From: Actinomycetes bacterium
Lineage (GTDB): Bacteria > Actinomycetota > Acidimicrobiia > Acidimicrobiales > CADCSY01
Reading direction: 5' to 3'
Length of the DNA: 64,000 bases
NCBI GenBank assembly: GCA_031398745.1
Contig: JANNNX010000007.1
Coordinates: 8,844-72,843 of the forward strand
Below, one piece after another: positions 14,436 through 63,535 of this stretch; the stretch's first letter is position 1; each line of letters begins with the position of its first letter. The translations under genes were made by a program, and so were the position numbers. Under the pieces are notes generated by a model, which ran no database searches, was not told where the DNA came from, and saw nothing but the letters and a program-made list of their open reading frames with translations.

Positions 14436-16967
<2,532 letters not shown>

Positions 16968-16982
16968 CGCCCGACGCCGAGC

Positions 16983-17912
16983 GTGGGCGGGGGCCGGGCG
17001 AAGTCGAACCGGACGACTCGGGCCCACGAGAATGCCGGCGTGGCGAGGGATCGGGTGTGGCCGTGGGTGGTCAGGCTGGTGTGGGTCGGGCTGCCGCTGG
17101 CGGCCGGACCGGCGCTGGCCGCCGCCCTCGACCCCCGCTCCGCGCCGGTGCAGGCGGTCGCCTCGACCGGCCTGTGGGTGGCCTGGGCGGCGGTGCTCCT
17201 GACCACGGTGGTGCCGCGGCCCGAGGGTCTGGCCGCGGCCCGGGTCGGGTCGGCCGGGGCGGTGGCGGCGGTGCTCGGGGCGGCGGCCAGCGGCGAGGCG
17301 AGCGCGCTGGCGTCGGGGGTCGGGGTGCTGGCCGCGGGCGCTGTCACCGCCGTGCTGCTGGCCCCCGAGACGGGATCGTGGTTCGTGAATGGCGCCGCCT
17401 ATGGCGACGAGCGGCGGTTCCTGCTGCGCCCCCCCGGTTCGACGGTGCTGGTGCTCGCCCCTCTCACCGTGCTGGCAGTGCTGGCCGGGGTGGCGACCGG
17501 ACCACTGCTCTTGGCCACCGGTGAGGTGCTGACCGGCGGCCTGGCCCTGGTCGCCGGCCTGGTGGTGGCCGGCGTCGGCGTGCGCGCTCTGCACGCCCTC
17601 TGCCTGCGCTGGATGGTGCTGGTCCCCGCCGGGCTCGTGCTCAAGGACCACCTCGCCCTGGTCGACCCGGTCCTGTTCCGTCGCCGGGACATCGCCGGGC
17701 TGGGGCCCGCTCCGGCCGACACCGACGCCCTCGATCTGACCTTCGGCGCACTGGGCCTGGCCGTGGAGCTGCGGCTGACGGAGCCCGTGCCCCTGGTGCG
17801 CGCCCGCTCGACCGACCAGCGGGGCCAGCCCGCCCACGCGCTGCTGTGCACCCCGACCCGCCCCGGCCGCCTGCTGACGGCAGCCGCCGACCGTCGCATC
17901 CGGCTGGGCTGA
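16983..17912 (+). CDS. polytopic membrane protein, hypothetical
   Basis: 309 aa. Several Ala/Leu/Val-rich TM segments followed by a roughly 100-aa soluble C-terminus. The start is uncertain (GTG 16983 or GTG 17040). Confidence 0.5.
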   Translation: MGGGRAKSNRTTRAHENAGVARDRVWPWVVRLVWVGLPLAAGPALAAALDPRSAPVQAVASTGLWVAWAAVLLTTVVPRPEGLAAARVGSAGAVAAVLGAAASGEASALASGVGVLAAGAVTAVLLAPETGSWFVNGAAYGDERRFLLRPPGSTVLVLAPLTVLAVLAGVATGPLLLATGEVLTGGLALVAGLVVAGVGVRALHALCLRWMVLVPAGLVLKDHLALVDPVLFRRRDIAGLGPAPADTDALDLTFGALGLAVELRLTEPVPLVRARSTDQRGQPAHALLCTPTRPGRLLTAAADRRIRLG

Positions 17913-17938
17913 GGAACGACCGCCCCACCCCCGCCGAC

Positions 17939-19017
17939 CTACCCGGCGAGACCCCCGCCCAGCACCTCATCGCCCCGGTAGACGACCACCGACTGGCCGG
18001 GGGCCACCCGCCGAGCCGGCTGATCGAGGCGGACCACCCCTCGGGCGGCGTCGACGGTGGCGGCCAGCGGGGCGCCGTGGGCCGAGCACTGGACCTCGAG
18101 CGGGGCACCCGGAGGCGGCGGCCCGGCCACCCAGGTCCAGCTGTCGGGATCGACCGTCACCTGGTCGACCAGGAGGTCCTCCGCGCCGCCGACCCGGACC
18201 ACGCCGGCCGCCACGTCGACGTCGACGGCGTAGCGGGCGGCGGCTCCCCCGGCAGCCCCCAGGCCACGCCGCTGGCCCACGGTGACCATCTCGATCGCGT
18301 CGATCCGGCCGACCTCCGCCCCCGAGTCGACATCGACCACCCGGGCGGGGGTGAAGCGCAGGCCGCGGTCGGCCAGGAAGCCCCGCCGACCGATCGAGGA
18401 GGCCACGAAGCAGACGTCCTGGCTGTCGGGCTTGGCCGCGGTCCGCAGACCGAGCGTCTCCGCGGCCCGGCGCACCGCAGCCTTGGTCCGGTCGCCGACC
18501 GGGAAGCGGGTGCGGGCCAGGACGCTCGACGGGAGCATGTGGAGCACGTAGCTCTGGTCCTTGGCCCGGTCGACCCCGCGCCGTAGACGCCCGTCGACCA
18601 CCTGGGCGTGGTGGCCGGGCGCCGTAGACGCCCGTCGACCACCTGGGCGTGGTGGCCGGTGGCCAGGATCTCGTAGCCGAGGTCGTCGACCCGGCGCAGC
18701 AGCCGATCGAACTTGATGGTGCGATTGCACTCGATGCACGGGTTCGGGGTGCGCCCGGCGGCGTGGGCGGCCACGTAGGGGTCGACCACCCACTCGGTGA
18801 AGTCGTCGGCCAGGTTGAAGACGTAGTGGTCGATGCCGAGCTGCTGGGCCACCCGGCGGGCGTCGTCGACATCGGCCGCCGAGCAGCAGCCCCGATCGGC
18901 GTCGCCGCCCCAGAGCCGGAGGGTCACCCCGGTCACGTCGTGGCCGGCTTCGACCGCCAGCGCGGCGGCCACCGACGAGTCGACCCCGCCGGACATGGCC
19001 ACCAGGACCCGGCTCAT
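17939..19017 (-). pseudogene. mnmA: tRNA 2-thiouridine(34) synthase MnmA, frame broken by a 41-bp tandem duplication
   Basis: The N-terminal frame carries MSRVLVAMSGGVDSS (PP-loop) ... NPCIECNRTIKF ... ILATGHHAQVVDGRLRR. The C-terminal frame carries GHHAQVVDGRLRRGVDRAKDQSYVLHML... The total is 1079 nt; minus 41 it is 1038 nt, a clean 345-aa ORF. Confidence 0.85.
18578..18659. repeat. perfect 2 x 41-bp tandem duplication inside mnmA
   Basis: The sequence gcgccgtagacgcccgtcgaccacctgggcgtggtggccgg occurs at 18578-18618 and again at 18619-18659. Confidence 0.95.
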
Positions 19018-20123
19018 GCTGCCCGCCGGCGGGCTCGGAGCTGCGCCACCGCCTCGGGCACCACGGTCAACGCCCGGTCGACGTCGTCCGGGGTCGACGA
19101 CCAGCCCAGGGTGAGCCGGAGGGAGGCCGCGGCCCGAGGATCGAGGCCCATCGCCCGGGTGACGTGCGACGCCTCGACCGCCCCCGAGGCGCACGAGGCC
19201 CCGATCGAGGCGAACACGCCGGCCTGGTCGAGCAGCACCAGCAGCGACTCGGCGTCGACCCCGTCGATCCGCAGGTGGGCATTGCCGGCGACCTTGCCGG
19301 CCCGCGGCACGGTCTCGGCGCACCCGTCGATCACTCCGGCCAGGCCGTCCACCAGCCGGTCGCGCAGGGCGCCAACCCGCTCGACGGTGGCCGAGCGCTC
19401 GGCCACGGTGCAGCGCACGGCCTCGGCCAGGCCGACGATGCCGGCCACGTCGTGGGTCCCGCTGCGCCGGTCGAGCTCCTGACCACCGCCCCGAAGGAGG
19501 GGGCGCAGCTCGACCCGCGGGCGCACCACCAGCGCCCCCACCCCCTGGGGGCCACCGAGCTTGTGCCCGGAGATCGACAGCAGGTCGGCGTCGGCCGCCA
19601 ACGCGGCCACGTCGAGCCACGGCAGGGCCTGGACGGCATCGGTGTGCAGCACCGCATCGGCGCCCATGCGCAGGCGCACCTCGGCCAGCGGCTGGATCGT
19701 GCCGACCTCGTTGTTGACCAGCATCACCGAGACGAGACCGGCGTCGGTCGGGACGGCGTCGAGGTCGACCCGGGCGTGGTGGTCGACCGGGATCGTCGCG
19801 CCGCCCAGGGCCAGCACCGGCTCGAGGACCGCGTGGTGCTCGATCGCCGAGCACACCGGCCGCCCTCGCCCGACCGCCTGGGCGATGGCGGTGGCATCGG
19901 ACTCGGTACCGCCGCTGGTGAACACCACCTCTCCGGGCCGGCAGCCCACACCGGCGGCCACCACCTCCCGCGCCTCTTCGACGGCCTGACGGGCGGCCCG
20001 GGCGACGGCGTGGCCACCCGACGCGTTGCCGAAGCGACCGCCACCGATCCAGGGCCACATGGCCGCGGCCACCGAGGGGCGGACCGGGGTGGTGGCGGCG
20101 TGGTCGAGGTAGGCGCCCGTCAC
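19014..20123 (-). CDS. iscS: cysteine desulfurase (class V aminotransferase, IscS/NifS-like)
   Basis: AYLDHAATTP, FTSGGTESD and SISGHKLGGPQGVGALV (PLP lysine) blocks. Its stop overlaps the mnmA ATG (ATGA at 19014-19017). Confidence 0.9.
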   Translation of the reverse strand: MTGAYLDHAATTPVRPSVAAAMWPWIGGGRFGNASGGHAVARAARQAVEEAREVVAAGVGCRPGEVVFTSGGTESDATAIAQAVGRGRPVCSAIEHHAVLEPVLALGGATIPVDHHARVDLDAVPTDAGLVSVMLVNNEVGTIQPLAEVRLRMGADAVLHTDAVQALPWLDVAALAADADLLSISGHKLGGPQGVGALVVRPRVELRPLLRGGGQELDRRSGTHDVAGIVGLAEAVRCTVAERSATVERVGALRDRLVDGLAGVIDGCAETVPRAGKVAGNAHLRIDGVDAESLLVLLDQAGVFASIGASCASGAVEASHVTRAMGLDPRAAASLRLTLGWSSTPDDVDRALTVVPEAVAQLRARRRAA

Positions 20124-20153: not shown

Positions 20154-20212
20154 CGGTCGGGCGGTGCACCGTCCTCACTGGGTCGGCGGACACCGTCCTC
20201 ACTGGGTCGGCG
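20154..20212. repeat. 24-nt-period tandem repeat (two full copies plus a partial one) spanning the RDD stop codon
   Basis: CACCGTCCTCACTGGGTCGGCG occurs at 20167-20188 and 20191-20212, preceded by a partial GGTCGGGCGG. The TCA (stop TGA on the minus strand) is present in both copies. Confidence 0.9.
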
Positions 20213-20995: not shown

Positions 20996-21175
20996 GACGT
21001 GGGGACGCCACGTCATCCTGGGAAGGACCCCACGTCCCCACGTCGGGCCCGGGGTCGGCCGCTCTCGGACGTGGGGACCCAGGGTCACGTTGGGGAGGAC
21101 CCGACGTCCCCACGTCGGCGCAAGTCCCCACGTCGGCGTACGTCCCCACGTCCCCACGTCCCCACGTCCCCACGT
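20996..21175. repeat. array of the GTCCCCAC / ACGTGGGGAC motif in a divergent promoter region, including (GTCCCCAC)4
   Basis: Four perfect head-to-tail 8-mers lie at 21142-21173. Forward copies lie at about 21028-21041, 21106-21113 and 21124-21131. Inverted copies lie at 20996-21006 and 21068-21078. Confidence 0.9.
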
Positions 21176-22328: not shown

Positions 22329-25253
22329 ATGGCGCCGCCCCCCGGACCCCCAGCGTTGGGCCGGGGCGTCGTGGTCACCGCCGGCGGCGTCGTCCCGGCC
22401 GGTTGGGCGGCCGCCGAGGTCGTGCGGATCGACGAGGCGGTGCTGGCAGACCCGGCCGACACCGTGACCCGCCTGCACCGAGCCTGGAGCCAGCGCCAGC
22501 CGCTCGTGGTCGAGCTGGCGGTCGACCCGGCCCGGTTCCGCGAGCCGATGACCGTGGGGGTCGAGCCCTGGACCCTCGGGCCCGACCTCGAGCTGTGGCC
22601 GGACCGGCTGCACCACCTGGTGTGGGCCAACACCTACGACGCCCGGTCGGGCGAACCGATCTGGTGGTGGGGTCGCAAGGCGGCCCGGCTGGGCGCGGTC
22701 GAGTCCCCCGACGGCACGGCCGACGTCACCCTGCCCGGCGGTCGCCCGGCCTGGATCGACGGAGGGCCCCGCGGCCCCCTGGATCTCGCCGACCGCTCGG
22801 CCGACATCGTCCACACCGAGTCGATCGACCTCGGCCGGCTCACCGTCGCCCCACCCGCGGGCCAGCCGACGGCCGTCCTGGCCCCGGACCAGCTGGCCGC
22901 CGTCGCCCACGGCAGCGGAGCGGCCCGGATCGTGGCCCCGGCCGGCTCGGGCAAGACCCGGGTCCTCACCGAGCGCCTCCGGCACCTGATCGTCGATCGG
23001 GGCGTCGAGCCCGAGACGGTTCTGGCGGTGGCCTACAACAAGAAGGCCCAGGCCGAACTCGAGGCCCGCACTGCCGACTTCCGACCCCGGGTCCGGACCC
23101 TCAACGCCCTCGGCTACGGGATCGTCGCCGACGCCTGGGGTCGGCGACCGGCGGTGCTCGACGAGCGCGAGGTCCGGTCGTTGGTCCGCGACCTGGTGCC
23201 CAAGACCCGGCGCCGGGCCAACACCGATCCCCTGGCCCCCTACCTCGAGGCGCTGTCGCTGGTTCGCCTGGGCCTGCGCGACCCCGAGGAGGTCGAGGCC
23301 GAGCGGGACGACGTGGCCGGGTTGGCGGCCGCCTTCGACGGGTTCCGGGGGGCGCTACGCCAGCGGGGGGCGGTCGACTTCGACGAGCAGGTCTACGCCG
23401 CGGTCGAGGCCCTGCTGGCCGACGGCGCCCTCCGGCGTCGGACCCAGAGCGGTTGTCGCCACCTCCTGGTCGACGAGCTCCAGGACCTGACTCCGGCCCA
23501 CGTCCTGCTCCTGCGGGTGCTCGCCGCCCCGGGGCTCGACGTGTTCGGGGTGGGTGACGACGACCAGGTCATCTACGACCACGCCGGTGCCGACCCGGGG
23601 TTCCTCATCGACTTCGACCGCCTGTTCCCGGGCGCCGCCGACCACCCGTTGACCATCAACTACCGCTGCCCGGTGGCAGTGGTCGACGCCGCCCGGACGC
23701 TGTTGTCCTACAACCACCGCAGGGTCGCCAAGGACATCGAGCCCGGACCGGCGGCCGACACCGACCGGTCGTCGCTGGTCGTGGTCCGCCACCCGGCCGA
23801 GGCCGGCGCCCGCTCGGTGGTCGAGGTCGTCCGGGGGTGGCTCGACGACGGGGTCGCACCCGCCTCGATGGCCGTGCTCACCCGGGTCAACTCCCTGCTC
23901 CTGGGTCCGCACGTGGCCCTGGCCAGCGCTGGGATCCCGATCGACTCGGTACTGCGACCCACCGTGCTCGACCGCCTCGGCCTGCGGGCTGCGCTGGCCT
24001 ACCTGCGCCTCGGCGCTTCCGATGACCACATGGCCGCGGCCGACATCGTCGAGATCCTCCGCCGCCCCAGCCGGGGCCTCCCGCCGTGGTTCGCGGAGCG
24101 CCTGGAGCGACGGACGTGGTGGAGCGCCGACCAGATCGAGGGCATCGGCGCGACCTTGCCCGACAAGGACGCGACCAAGGTCGCTTCGCTGGTCGATGAC
24201 CTGCGGACGGTGACGGTGGCGGTGTCCAGGGGCACCACCCGCCAGGCCTTGCGGGTCATCCGCGACGACATCGGCCTGGCCGGCGCCATCTCGCTGCTGG
24301 ACGAGTCGAAGGGGGGTGAGGGATCGAGCCACCTCGACGACCTCGAGGGCCTGCTGCAGGTGGCCGACCTCCACCCCGACCCGGTGACCTTCGAGGCCTG
24401 GCTGCGGGCCGCGCTGGCCGGCGGGCCCGAGGGCGCGCCCGAGCGAGACCGGTCGCCCGAGGGCGCCACCGCCTCTGGCGTCGTGCTCTCGACCGTGCAC
24501 CGGGTCAAGGGCATGGAGTGGGATCGGGTGGCGGTGTTCGGGGTCACCGCCGGCATCGTCCCCCACCGCCTGGCGGCCGACGTCGAGGAGGAACGCCGGG
24601 TCCTGCACGTGGCGATCACCCGAGGGCGCCACCGGGTGACGGTGCTGGCCGACGCCAGCCGACCCTCGCCCTTCCTGGGTGAGCTCGACGGGTCAGCCGC
24701 CCACGGCCCTCCCCCGGCGGTCCCCGGCCCCGGCCGGCGACCCGGCCTGACCGGCGCTCCGGGCGATCGGGCCAAGGCACCCCGGTCCCGGGCGGTCGAG
24801 GCACGGATCGGCACCGAGGTGGTCCTCAACGGAGGCTTCGCCGGGGTCGTCGCCCAGGTCGACCTGGAGGCGGGCGAAGCCGGCGTGCGACTCGAGTCGG
24901 GCGCCACCCTGCGGGTCCGCTTCGGCGAGACGGCCAAGGTCGGCGGGCGGGAGGTCACCCTGGTCGCACCCGAGACCCTTACCGCCGAAGCGGAGGCGGC
25001 CGAGATCGCACTCAAGGCCTGGCGCCTCGAACGGAGTCGCGCCGACAAGGTGGCGGCCTTCATCGTCTTGTCCGACCGCCACCTCCGCGGCATCGCCCGA
25101 GCCCAGCCGACCAGCCTGGCGGAGCTGTCGAAGCTCGACGGGATCGGCCCCACCAAGCTCGAGCAGTACGGCGAGGAGATCCTCGCCACCCTCGACGGCC
25201 TGGGTCCTGCGCCCGGAGCCCGAGGCGGGGACGCAGGGTCCGCCGCGCCGTGA
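22329..25253 (+). CDS. UvrD/PcrA-type superfamily 1 helicase with a roughly 210-aa N-terminal extension and C-terminal HRDC domain
   Basis: Walker A APAGSGKTRVLTER, LLVDELQDLTPAH, INYRC and TVHRVKGMEWDRV blocks. The HRDC-like tail is LKAWRLERSRADKVAAFIVLSDRHLRGIA...LSKLDGIGPTKLEQYG. ATG 22329. Confidence 0.85.
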   Translation: MAPPPGPPALGRGVVVTAGGVVPAGWAAAEVVRIDEAVLADPADTVTRLHRAWSQRQPLVVELAVDPARFREPMTVGVEPWTLGPDLELWPDRLHHLVWANTYDARSGEPIWWWGRKAARLGAVESPDGTADVTLPGGRPAWIDGGPRGPLDLADRSADIVHTESIDLGRLTVAPPAGQPTAVLAPDQLAAVAHGSGAARIVAPAGSGKTRVLTERLRHLIVDRGVEPETVLAVAYNKKAQAELEARTADFRPRVRTLNALGYGIVADAWGRRPAVLDEREVRSLVRDLVPKTRRRANTDPLAPYLEALSLVRLGLRDPEEVEAERDDVAGLAAAFDGFRGALRQRGAVDFDEQVYAAVEALLADGALRRRTQSGCRHLLVDELQDLTPAHVLLLRVLAAPGLDVFGVGDDDQVIYDHAGADPGFLIDFDRLFPGAADHPLTINYRCPVAVVDAARTLLSYNHRRVAKDIEPGPAADTDRSSLVVVRHPAEAGARSVVEVVRGWLDDGVAPASMAVLTRVNSLLLGPHVALASAGIPIDSVLRPTVLDRLGLRAALAYLRLGASDDHMAAADIVEILRRPSRGLPPWFAERLERRTWWSADQIEGIGATLPDKDATKVASLVDDLRTVTVAVSRGTTRQALRVIRDDIGLAGAISLLDESKGGEGSSHLDDLEGLLQVADLHPDPVTFEAWLRAALAGGPEGAPERDRSPEGATASGVVLSTVHRVKGMEWDRVAVFGVTAGIVPHRLAADVEEERRVLHVAITRGRHRVTVLADASRPSPFLGELDGSAAHGPPPAVPGPGRRPGLTGAPGDRAKAPRSRAVEARIGTEVVLNGGFAGVVAQVDLEAGEAGVRLESGATLRVRFGETAKVGGREVTLVAPETLTAEAEAAEIALKAWRLERSRADKVAAFIVLSDRHLRGIARAQPTSLAELSKLDGIGPTKLEQYGEEILATLDGLGPAPGARGGDAGSAAP

Positions 25254-25278: not shown

Positions 25279-26588
25279 CTACAGGCTGCCGGTCCGCTTG
25301 ACCTGGAGGTAGGCGTCGACGACGCCGGCTGTCAGCTCGCCCGGCGGGGCGTCGACCACCGAGGCTCCGAGGCTGCGGAGCCGGGTCGCGACCCGATCCC
25401 GCTCCTCCAGCACGCCGAGGGCGGCGGCCTTGCGAAAGGCGCTGGCGGCGTCGAGGGGGTCGCCGCCAGCCCAGCCGGCGACCAGGGGATCGGTGACCGA
25501 CGCCACCACCAGGAGGTGGCCGCGAGCGATGACCGGAACGGCCGGCAGCATCGTGTCGGCCACCGTGTGAGCGGCCAGGTCGGTCAGCAGGACCACCAGC
25601 GAGCGCCGTCGGAACCGGGCCAAGGTGGCGGCGAAGGCGGCCCGGTAGTCGGCCTCGGCCAGCTCAGGCTCCCAGCCGGCGAAGGCCTCGGCCACCCGGC
25701 CCACCTGGGAGCCACCGGCCCGGGGCGGCACCACACCGACGACCTCGGCCCCGAAGCCGAGGACACCGACCGATCGCCGAGCGCCCCGGCTACGTGGGTG
25801 AGGGCGAGCACCGCGTCCATGGCGTGCTCCACCCGGGGCACGTCGGCCACCCGGGCCGCCATCGTCCGACCCAGGTCGAGGATGCACACCACCGACTGGT
25901 TCCGCTCGGCCCGGTAGGTGCGCACGATGGTGCGTCCCGTGCGGGCCGTCGCCGCCCAGTCGATCCGCCGACTCTCGTCGTCGACGGTGTACTCCCGCAG
26001 CGAGTCGAGCTCCGTCCCGCCCCCCCGGGCCAGCGAGGTCCGAAGGCCGGACTCGAGCAGCCGGAACTGGCGCAACCGAAGCTCGGCCGTGGTCCGACCC
26101 GGGAACCGGGGGTGGACCCGCAGGCGTCCGGGGGCCGGGCGCACGCCCTGCCGGGCCGCTAGGCCGAGCGGTCCCTCGATCCGCACCGTCACCGGGCCGA
26201 GGTCGAACCGGCCCCGGCGCGACGGCGTCAGGGTGGTGACGGCCACGGCCCGACCCAGCGCGGGCACCTCGAGCTGGGCCCGACGGGAGGCCGCCCCGAG
26301 CGACGGCGCCAAGGCGTCGGCCAGGCCGACCACCAGGCGTCGCTCGGTGGGGTTGGTCAGGGTCCAGGTCAGCGGGGCGGCGGCACCGAGTGTCACCACC
26401 TCGGCCACCGTCCGGGTGACGTCGACCTCGGCCGGACGCGGGGTCCGAGCCCAATCGACCAGGGCCAGTGCCAACACCAGCCCGTCGACCAGGAGGAAGC
26501 CGGCCGGGAACCCCACCGGCAGGACCAGCGCGGCCAGCGAGGCGGCGACGGCCAGCACCGCCAGGCGCCGGGTGGGGATGGGCAGCAT
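25279..26588 (-). pseudogene. DUF58 (VWA-like) protein, reading frame broken near 25770
   Basis: The N-terminal frame carries two TM segments, then REYTVDDESRRIDWAATARTGRTIVRTYRAERNQSVVCILDLGRTM ... ALTHVAGALGDR. The C-terminal frame carries VGVLGFGAEVVGVVPPR ... LVVLLTDL. The total is 1310 nt, one short of a codon multiple. Confidence 0.75.
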
Positions 26589-26616
26589 CAGCGGCGCGGT
26601 CCGTCGGAGGCGCCCG

Positions 26617-27643
<1,027 letters not shown>

Positions 27644-54142: not shown

Positions 54143-56577
<2,435 letters not shown>

Positions 56578-61266: not shown

Positions 61267-61339
61267 GGTCCTGGAGGAGGTTCCTGGAGGAGGTCGAGGA
61301 GGACGAGCCAGCCGTGGCTGGGCTCGTGAAAGTGTTCTC

Positions 61340-61414: not shown

Positions 61415-63535
61415 GTGGCCTACACCCTCGATCTGCCGCCCGAGGACCGTGCCCGCTCGCCGATCACCGGCTGGACCCGAGCCCACTGGGAGGCGGTCGC
61501 CGACCACCTCCTCGACAGCCTCGGGCCGTGGTGGTCGCCGGCCCAGGCCCGCATCGACCTCCCCGGCCGGGCCAGTGCCGCGGGGCCGGCCAGCGATGGG
61601 CTCGAGGCCTTCGCTCGGAGCTTCGTTCTGGCCGCCTACCGGGCCGCGGACGGGAGCCCGGCCGGGCAGACCCGCCTGGCCCGCTACCGCGAGGGACTGG
61701 CCGTAGGAACCGACCCGACCGCGGCCGAGGCGTGGCCCACTCCCCAGGTGGCCCGCCAGAGCCTGGTCGAGGCCGCCTCGCTGGTCACCGCCCTGGCCGC
61801 GCTCGGCCGCCCGTTCTGGGACGACCTCGACGACCGCACCCGCCACCATGTCGCCGAGTGGCTCCAGGGCGGGCTCCAGCTGCCGCTGCGGTCGCTCCCG
61901 ACCAACAACTGGCTCCTCTACCCGGTTCTCATCGAGGCCTTCCTCCGATCGGTCGGGGTCGCACCGGTGGCGCGCCCCAGCGACGAGGCACTGGCACTGA
62001 TCGAGTCGTTCCACGTCGCCGACGGCTGGTACCGCGACGGGCCGGGCGACGCCTTCGACCACTACGGCGCCTGGTCGATCCACCACCATCTGGCGACCTG
62101 GCTGCGCATCCAGGGTTCGGCCGCCGATCCGGACGTGGTGGCCACGCTGGGGGCGCGGCGCCGGGCCTTCCTCGACGCCTATTGCGACCTCTTCGGCACC
62201 GACGGCGCTCCGCTGCACCACGGGCGCTCGCTCCCCTACCGCACCGCCACCGCCGGGCCGTTCTGGCTGGCCGCCCTCGACGGCGACTCCCCTCTGAGTG
62301 CGGGGGCCACCCGCCGCCTGGCGTCGGGCGTGCTCCGCCACTTCGTCGACCGGGGGGTCGGAGTCGACGGGCCACTCAGCCTCGGCTGGTACGACGAGTG
62401 CCTGGCGCTCACCCAGCGCTGGGCCGGACCAGGCTCGCCCTACCTGGCCAGCCTGGGCTTCGCTGGGCTGCTCGCGCCGCCCGACCACGCCCTGTGGACC
62501 GCGCCCGAAGAGCCGCTGCCGCTCGACGTGGGCGACGTGTCCCGGACCATCGCGGCCACCGGGTGGGTGGTGTCGGGCACCGCCGCCGACGGCATCGTTC
62601 GGGTGGCCAACCACGGTGCCGACCACCACCCCTTCCCGGTCGAGCGGGACGACAACCCGCTCTACCGCAAGCTCATCTACAGCACCGCCACCGGCCCGGG
62701 CCTGGGCCTGGCCGACACGCACGACATCGACGCCACCGTGACCGTCCTGGGCGACGACGACGCTCTCCTCCTGCGGTCGCGGTGGACAACCGTGGCGTCC
62801 GGCGACGGCTGGGCCATCTCCCGCACCGTGGCCGAGGCTCGCTCGCCCGGGAGCCGGGCCGTGCTGGCGGCCACCGTCGCCCGCTACGAGGGGGCGCTGG
62901 TCCGGCGGGTCCCGCCGCTGCGACTGCTCCCCCGGCGCCGGCTGCTCCGCCGCCTCCTCGGCCCCCCGGCAGTGCCGCCTTCGGGCTACGACCAGATCGA
63001 GACGTGCAGCGTCCTGCGGGGCGACGTCGAGGTCCGGGTCCACCACCTCTCGACCCTCGATCTGCGCAGCCTGCGCGACGGTGGTGCCATGGTGGCGGCA
63101 AGCCAGGAGGTGGCCACCGACCACGGCCCGGGGTGGGCCCGGGTGACCAGCAGCAACGGCTTGACCAGCGTGGCCGTGGCTCTCCACGGCGGTCGCCGGT
63201 CCAGCGCGCCGGGCTACGACGACGCCAACGCCTTCGGCCCCCGGGCCGCGGCGCCGGGGTTGGTGTCGGCGCCGATCGTGGCCCAAGGCCTGGTGGCCTC
63301 GGCGTTCGTCCTCCGGCGAGGCCACTGCGACCCGACCGAGCTCGCCGCGTCGGTCGCCTTCCGTCCCGTCGGCCGGCGGGCCGGCGTGCTCGAGTGGGCC
63401 GACGGCGAGCGCTTCCTGGTCTGTCTGGGGGTTCCCGAGGCGCTGTCCCACGGCCTCGACGGCGTGCCCGAGGACCGCCCGCTGCGGGCCGCCCGGCTGC
63501 GCCCGGGATTCCCCCCGCAGCTCTGGCCGGCCTGA
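61415..63535 (+). CDS. DUF2264 domain protein
   Basis: SPITGWTRAHWEAVADHLLDSL, DGLEAFARSFVLAAY, NNWLLYPVLIEAFL and DGWYRDGPGDAFDHYGAWSIHHHL blocks. The start is uncertain (GTG 61415 chosen). Confidence 0.7.
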   Translation: MAYTLDLPPEDRARSPITGWTRAHWEAVADHLLDSLGPWWSPAQARIDLPGRASAAGPASDGLEAFARSFVLAAYRAADGSPAGQTRLARYREGLAVGTDPTAAEAWPTPQVARQSLVEAASLVTALAALGRPFWDDLDDRTRHHVAEWLQGGLQLPLRSLPTNNWLLYPVLIEAFLRSVGVAPVARPSDEALALIESFHVADGWYRDGPGDAFDHYGAWSIHHHLATWLRIQGSAADPDVVATLGARRRAFLDAYCDLFGTDGAPLHHGRSLPYRTATAGPFWLAALDGDSPLSAGATRRLASGVLRHFVDRGVGVDGPLSLGWYDECLALTQRWAGPGSPYLASLGFAGLLAPPDHALWTAPEEPLPLDVGDVSRTIAATGWVVSGTAADGIVRVANHGADHHPFPVERDDNPLYRKLIYSTATGPGLGLADTHDIDATVTVLGDDDALLLRSRWTTVASGDGWAISRTVAEARSPGSRAVLAATVARYEGALVRRVPPLRLLPRRRLLRRLLGPPAVPPSGYDQIETCSVLRGDVEVRVHHLSTLDLRSLRDGGAMVAASQEVATDHGPGWARVTSSNGLTSVAVALHGGRRSSAPGYDDANAFGPRAAAPGLVSAPIVAQGLVASAFVLRRGHCDPTELAASVAFRPVGRRAGVLEWADGERFLVCLGVPEALSHGLDGVPEDRPLRAARLRPGFPPQLWPA

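Follow-up and report, generated by a model that had tools for sequence, protein, structure and literature searches.

The mnmA gene in the window (the whole 64-kb stretch of DNA that was analysed) is split between two reading frames by a perfect 41-nt tandem duplication. The second 41-nt copy probably does not reflect biology but an error made in assembling the deposited contig or in calling its consensus. The organism, an uncultured member of the Acidimicrobiales, would then carry one intact copy of a C-type mnmA, whose translation is coupled to that of a cysteine desulfurase gene, and we infer that the extra copy would have been introduced during assembly, consensus or polishing of the deposit. 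An error is favoured because an independent assembly of the same population contains the one-copy intact gene, because the deposit also contains a second frameshift and an aberrant codon which the read-based contigs do not support, and because mnmA is uninterrupted in all 80 relatives compared, the two copies are identical and there is no decay downstream of them.

The 41-mers at positions 18578-18618 and 18619-18659 are identical (GCGCCGTAGACGCCCGTCGACCACCTGGGCGTGGTGGCCGG) and the copy number is exactly 2. The match extends 0 bases beyond either edge, so there is no flanking microhomology. Tandem repeat analysis with TRF gave a period of 41, 2.0 copies and 100% matches with a score of 164, the top score in the window. 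The longest perfect full duplication found in 200 first-order shuffles of the window had a period of 13, thus the 41-bp duplication is far beyond chance; the next largest perfect full duplications in the real window have periods of 21, 16 and 13. The 31-mer across the copy-to-copy junction of the two-copy allele is GGGCGTGGTGGCCGGGCGCCGTAGACGCCCG. Folding of the repeat region as single-stranded DNA did not reveal any unusual structure promoting slippage (z = -1.53). The breakpoints, having neither microhomology nor special structure, are therefore uninformative either way.

As written, mnmA occupies positions 17939 to 19017 on the minus strand, a frameshifted stretch of 1079 nt. It starts with the ATG at 19017, opening MSRVLVAMSGGVDSS, and this N-terminal frame is correct up to residue 133 (..GRLRR; ..ATGHHAQVVDGRLRR), coded by 19017-18619. 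The copy at 18619-18659 is the first in the direction of transcription and supplies residues 120-133 in this frame. After residue 133 the second copy, 18578-18618, is read out of frame and 153 wrong codons follow before a stop at 18157, the open reading frame from the mnmA start (18157 to 19017, minus strand) thus comprising 133 correct and 153 out-of-frame residues. Residues 119-345 of MnmA are coded by 18622-17942 in the other frame, in which the second copy encodes (T)GHHAQVVDGRLRR, with the stop at 17939. Deleting one copy in silico gives 1038 nt and a single protein of 345 amino acids. A reading made earlier from the sequence alone had claimed a perfect 41-bp duplication at 18578-18659, a consequent frameshift of mnmA and the recovery of a 1038-nt gene for a 345-aa MnmA on removal of one copy. 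Direct comparison and TRF bear out the first, the N- and C-terminal parts are indeed in different frames, and the single-copy gene is as described. That sequence-only reading had also suggested an alignment of the single-copy translation with MnmA references, which extends from end to end (positions 1-344 of 345 in the NCBIfam model NF001138, and Protein Data Bank entry 2der), and a search for a second mnmA, which found none within the 64-kb window.

The repaired protein scored 331.1 bits against NF001138 (MnmA; cutoff 284) and 262.9 bits against TIGR00420 (cutoff 236.95), while the family-model match of the gene as written is split across two frames. Three Pfam domains are present, PF03054 (residues 3-192), PF20259 (206-263) and PF20258 (279-343), in the order catalytic HUP domain, central PRC barrel and C-terminal barrel. 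Residues 9-15, SGGVDSS, form the PP-loop and fit the ATP-pyrophosphatase motif SxGxDS/T, as defined previously (PMC7025502). The cysteines C44-C45, C94-I-E-C97 (CxxC) and C189 make up the CC-CxxC-C pattern that defines the [4Fe-4S]-dependent C-type MnmA, of which Actinobacteria are among the carriers (Shigi et al. 2020, PMC7025502). By these motifs the repaired protein is a C-type (Fe-S) MnmA, for which an Fe-S cluster and a function in forming s2U34 on tRNA-Lys, tRNA-Glu and tRNA-Gln are predicted. It resembles the C-type enzyme of Thermus thermophilus, TtMnmA, in having SGGVDSS, the five cysteines and the three Pfam domains, and the pairing of mnmA with a cysteine desulfurase is also as in the TtMnmA system; cysteine desulfurase served as the sulfur donor in MnmA assays (PMC7025502). 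Unlike TtMnmA, the gene in the window is split by the 41-nt duplication after codon 133. Residues 3-343 also align with the D-type MnmA of E. coli (PDB 2der/2det/2deu; E-value of 3e-60 for 2der) with the same fold and domain order. However, E. coli MnmA has DxxC (Asp99/Cys102) where the repaired protein has CxxC, and it is thought to use a persulfide relay and not a cluster (PMC7025502).

The frameshift point follows the CxxC and precedes both C189, the third cluster cysteine, and the two tRNA-binding domains. The product of the N-terminal open reading frame lacks Cys189 and both tRNA-binding barrel domains. Given that the frameshift separates the cluster cysteines and precedes both tRNA-binding domains, mnmA as written would be null. 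Downstream of the duplication no decay is visible in the frame.

The repaired 345-aa MnmA is present verbatim in the protein collection searched, where it comes from the Logan assembly of run SRR20217204. The deposited NCBI contig (123,011 bp) is represented in the same collection by a 202-aa C-terminal fragment of MnmA only, which the gene caller begins after the KDQSY motif. The corresponding Logan contig, L081 (2451 bp), matches window positions 17225-19716 with 100% identity, the sole difference being that the 41-mer occurs in it once. A full-text literature search for SRR20217204 found no paper, and a scan of JGI metagenomes with a 28-nt flank of the repeat gave 0 matches.

The way in which Logan contigs are made determines how this result should be read. 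Logan assembles each run separately with k=31, dropping k-mers seen once and simplifying the Minia3 graph conservatively, and every 31-mer in its contigs is distinct by construction (PMC12424806). Since repeated 31-mers are impossible, the two-copy allele could not be written inside a Logan contig at all, and the evidence at mnmA is the existence of an unbroken contig and not a direct count of copies. When a noise-free graph with k=31 is built from the two-copy allele, it falls apart into unitigs of 1383, 41, 60 and 1087 nt, whereas the one-copy allele gives a single unitig of 2451 nt, the length of L081. Given the k-mer filter and the graph simplification, the unbroken L081 means that the 30 junction k-mers are absent from SRR20217204, or are minor enough there to be pruned. 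From the lengths of the Logan contigs (1-6 kb), the chance that low coverage removed all 30 junction k-mers and so collapsed a real duplication is estimated at a few percent.

The Logan contigs L081-L086 from SRR20217204 cover 19,487 bases of the window at 99.97-100% identity outside the duplication. Over these bases there are five differences from the deposited contig, namely the 41-nt duplication, a 1-nt deletion at 25770 and substitutions at 23021, 54203 and 63258. A scan of reading frames by GC3 over the 64 kb found only two places where the frame switches on the same strand without a stop, one being the mnmA repeat and the other lying at about 25700-25750. The second falls in a DUF58/VWA-like gene at about 25279-26590 on the minus strand, downstream of the gene for a MoxR ATPase, and contains the deletion at 25770. 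Here the window reads GAT CGG TCG GTG where GAT CGG GTC GGT is needed (..GALGDR|VGVLGFGAE..). On the coding strand L084 has GGG where the window has GG, and its DUF58 gene is intact. Inserting one G in the window gene gives a 436-aa protein that is present verbatim in the Logan assembly of SRR20217204, and the change from GGG to GG splits the gene into pieces of 334 and 105 amino acids, both of which are in the collection. A 35-aa ENA member of the DUF58 cluster was discarded as it came from unrelated metagenome contigs, one of them a gut metagenome.

The substitution at 54203 lies in atpD on the minus strand, where the window has TTA (Leu) and L083 has TTC (Phe). The position corresponds to the Phe in the motif LPEQAF, a residue shared by all three of the solved F1-beta chains shown aligned, and among the five genes counted the TTA codon occurs nowhere else. 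A base error in the deposit is the probable cause. At 23021, in a UvrD-like helicase gene, the window has the rare GTT and Logan has the synonymous GTG. At 63258, in a PF10022-family gene, the window has GGG (Gly) and Logan has GTG (Val). All three substitutions are G/T transversions. With two indels to three substitutions, and with the aberrant state in the deposit wherever this can be judged, the differences look like technical error and not like strain divergence.

The gene upstream of mnmA, at 19014 to 20123 on the minus strand, encodes a cysteine desulfurase of the class-V aminotransferase fold (NifS/IscS-like). Its TGA stop at 19014-19016 overlaps the mnmA start at 19017-19015 in an ATGA that was read directly, and the stop-start coupling of the two genes proposed at the outset is therefore upheld. 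A genome scan with the repaired MnmA gave only relatives of at most 67% identity, and the eighty Acidimicrobiales loci (L001-L080) fetched for comparison do not include the source genome. The nearest genomes are those of uncultured Acidimicrobiales, whose MnmA is 55-69% identical; no homologue is listed above 69%, the 90% cluster being represented by the 202-aa fragment of the deposited contig. A cysteine desulfurase gene is directly upstream on the same strand in 69 of the 74 relatives with enough upstream sequence. In all 80 relatives mnmA is one uninterrupted translated (tblastn) match across the site. To judge by its domains, motifs and neighbour, the repaired gene encodes an unremarkable C-type MnmA and has the usual cysteine desulfurase pairing. 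The duplicated stretch (18619-18660, residues 120-133) covers a hairpin following ATGHHA whose length varies among the relatives, from 0 extra residues up to 12 more than are found here. Of the 80, 78 have a hairpin with 3-12 additional residues, and its shortest form is found in this genome and two relatives.

A separate observation concerns ligA (14895-17912), which lies on the strand opposite to mnmA. Among the 80 relatives, ligA is downstream of mnmA and on the same strand in 60 of the 60 with ligA in the fetched flank. The gene order, sampled in 30 relatives, is RDD, cysteine desulfurase, mnmA, a convergent membrane-protein gene and ligA. This suggests either a local inversion in this lineage or a misjoin; none of the Logan contigs retrieved spans the junction between ligA and the membrane-protein gene.

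Two other perfect tandem repeats in the window, at 20167-20212 and 61269-61294, served as a control. Both are shorter than k and thus cannot be collapsed, and Logan reproduces both. The first is a 24-bp unit present 1.9 times, also found in L082, which repeats the last codons and the TGA of an RDD-family gene in the spacer that precedes the gene for the cysteine desulfurase. The second is a 13-bp unit present twice (TCCTGGAGGAGGT), also found in L085, and it is non-coding and just upstream of the ATG of a minus-strand gene. Since the Logan contigs carry them, both repeats are genuine.

Two further repeats were also seen. About nine CCCCACGT octamers at 21028-21044 and 21100-21175, which were also scored as periods of 16, 18 and 26 bp, lie in the spacer from which the RDD gene and a gene for a SpoIIM-like membrane protein diverge. 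The Logan contigs L082 and L084 stop on opposite sides of this array, which could be a set of regulator binding sites. The N-terminus of the MoxR-like AAA ATPase contains MPDPADG repeats, which are encoded at 27550-27625 by an in-frame 21-bp repeat of about 3.4 copies with 80-89% identity.

The split mnmA resembles the indel and duplication errors of draft or metagenome-assembled contigs in that a conserved housekeeping gene is frameshifted, has not decayed and is intact in an independent assembly, and in that a 1-nt homopolymer deletion and odd substitutions accompany it in the same contig. However, a clean, perfect 41-nt tandem duplication is less typical of consensus errors than are homopolymer indels. 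It should also be noted that the deposit may stem from a sample other than SRR20217204 in which the two-copy allele could be dominant, and that this genome does acquire small tandem duplications naturally, two of them confirmed by Logan. As a lead only, 41 might be the k-mer size of the assembler, the ends of two contigs having been joined without their overlap being trimmed. The sequence-only reading had offered inactivation, phase variation and an artefact as options; the last has gained support from the one-copy Logan contig and from the other defects of the deposit, while inactivation and phase variation are unsupported.

The alternative that survives best, although we consider it rather unlikely, is that the duplication is real and unfixed, a very recent loss-of-function allele of mnmA in a sub-lineage or in one sample with the intact allele found elsewhere. 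Such an allele would be transient, probably deleterious and readily reverting by the loss of one copy, and it would be either dominant in the sample of the deposit or picked up from a minority of its reads. Some bacteria tolerate the loss of mnmA (mnmA mutants of E. coli grow slowly but are viable), which counts in favour of a real allele. The near identity of the deposited contig to the read-based contigs (99.97-100% otherwise), the other genuine small perfect tandem duplications in the genome and the location of the site in a loop of variable length among the 80 relatives all fit with it as well. The perfect head-to-tail copies, the length that is not a multiple of 3 and the restoration of the gene by deletion are as in spontaneous tandem-duplication frameshift alleles. 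The case here differs from these, however, in that the duplication has no flanking microhomology and the two-copy allele is known from the deposited contig alone. Against a real allele, the sole independent assembly is an unbroken one-copy path, mnmA is intact in all 80 relatives and there is neither microhomology at the breakpoints nor unusual secondary structure (z = -1.5); moreover, with a second frameshift and an aberrant codon in the same contig, errors explain the whole set more simply. It is unlikely, in our estimation, that within a natural population of Acidimicrobiales a reversible 41-nt duplication has knocked out mnmA in some members while the intact allele persists. If it had, wobble-uridine thiolation, and hence the fidelity and speed of translation, would show standing heterogeneity within a single environmental population.

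Phase variation, in which the 41-mer would toggle between one and two copies as a heritable ON/OFF switch for tRNA s2U34 thiolation, is very improbable. Both versions are in public sequence and, 41 not being a multiple of 3, a change in copy number would switch the frame. However, the unit is long and present in at most two copies, whereas contingency loci consist of many short units, and the one-copy state has neither a repeat to slip on nor flanking microhomology. The 80 relatives match without interruption across the site by translated match, the sole difference in copy number is that between the deposit and Logan, and the unrelated defects co-occurring in the same contig point to error. 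That the split gene still functions, by ribosomal +1 frameshifting within the second copy to give a 14-residue loop insertion or by the reassembly of two separately translated fragments, is scarcely credible even though the insertion would fall in a surface hairpin to which 78 of the 80 relatives add 3-12 residues, given that inspection of the sequence and folding did not reveal a frameshift-prone motif or a stimulatory structure, that C94 and C97 would be separated from C189 and the N-terminal product would be without both tRNA-binding domains, and that the C-terminal frame has no credible start, the gene caller finding the 202-aa piece only.

An error in the deposited contig is thus the explanation that we prefer. 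It is best not to regard the duplication as a real feature; if it is real, it would be an instance of the known spontaneous tandem-duplication frameshift. The main value of the analysis is quality control of the deposited contig, whose errors feed truncated proteins into databases; the 202-aa MnmA and the 334-aa and 105-aa DUF58 fragments are already in the collection. Suspected frameshifts of this kind can be tested cheaply by repairing the protein in silico and searching read-based assemblies for an exact match. Taken at face value, the contig would suggest that this Acidimicrobiales genome lacks a functional mnmA and has a broken DUF58 gene. Were the duplication real, it would be a modest example of a tRNA-modification gene that was lost recently and reversibly in the wild.
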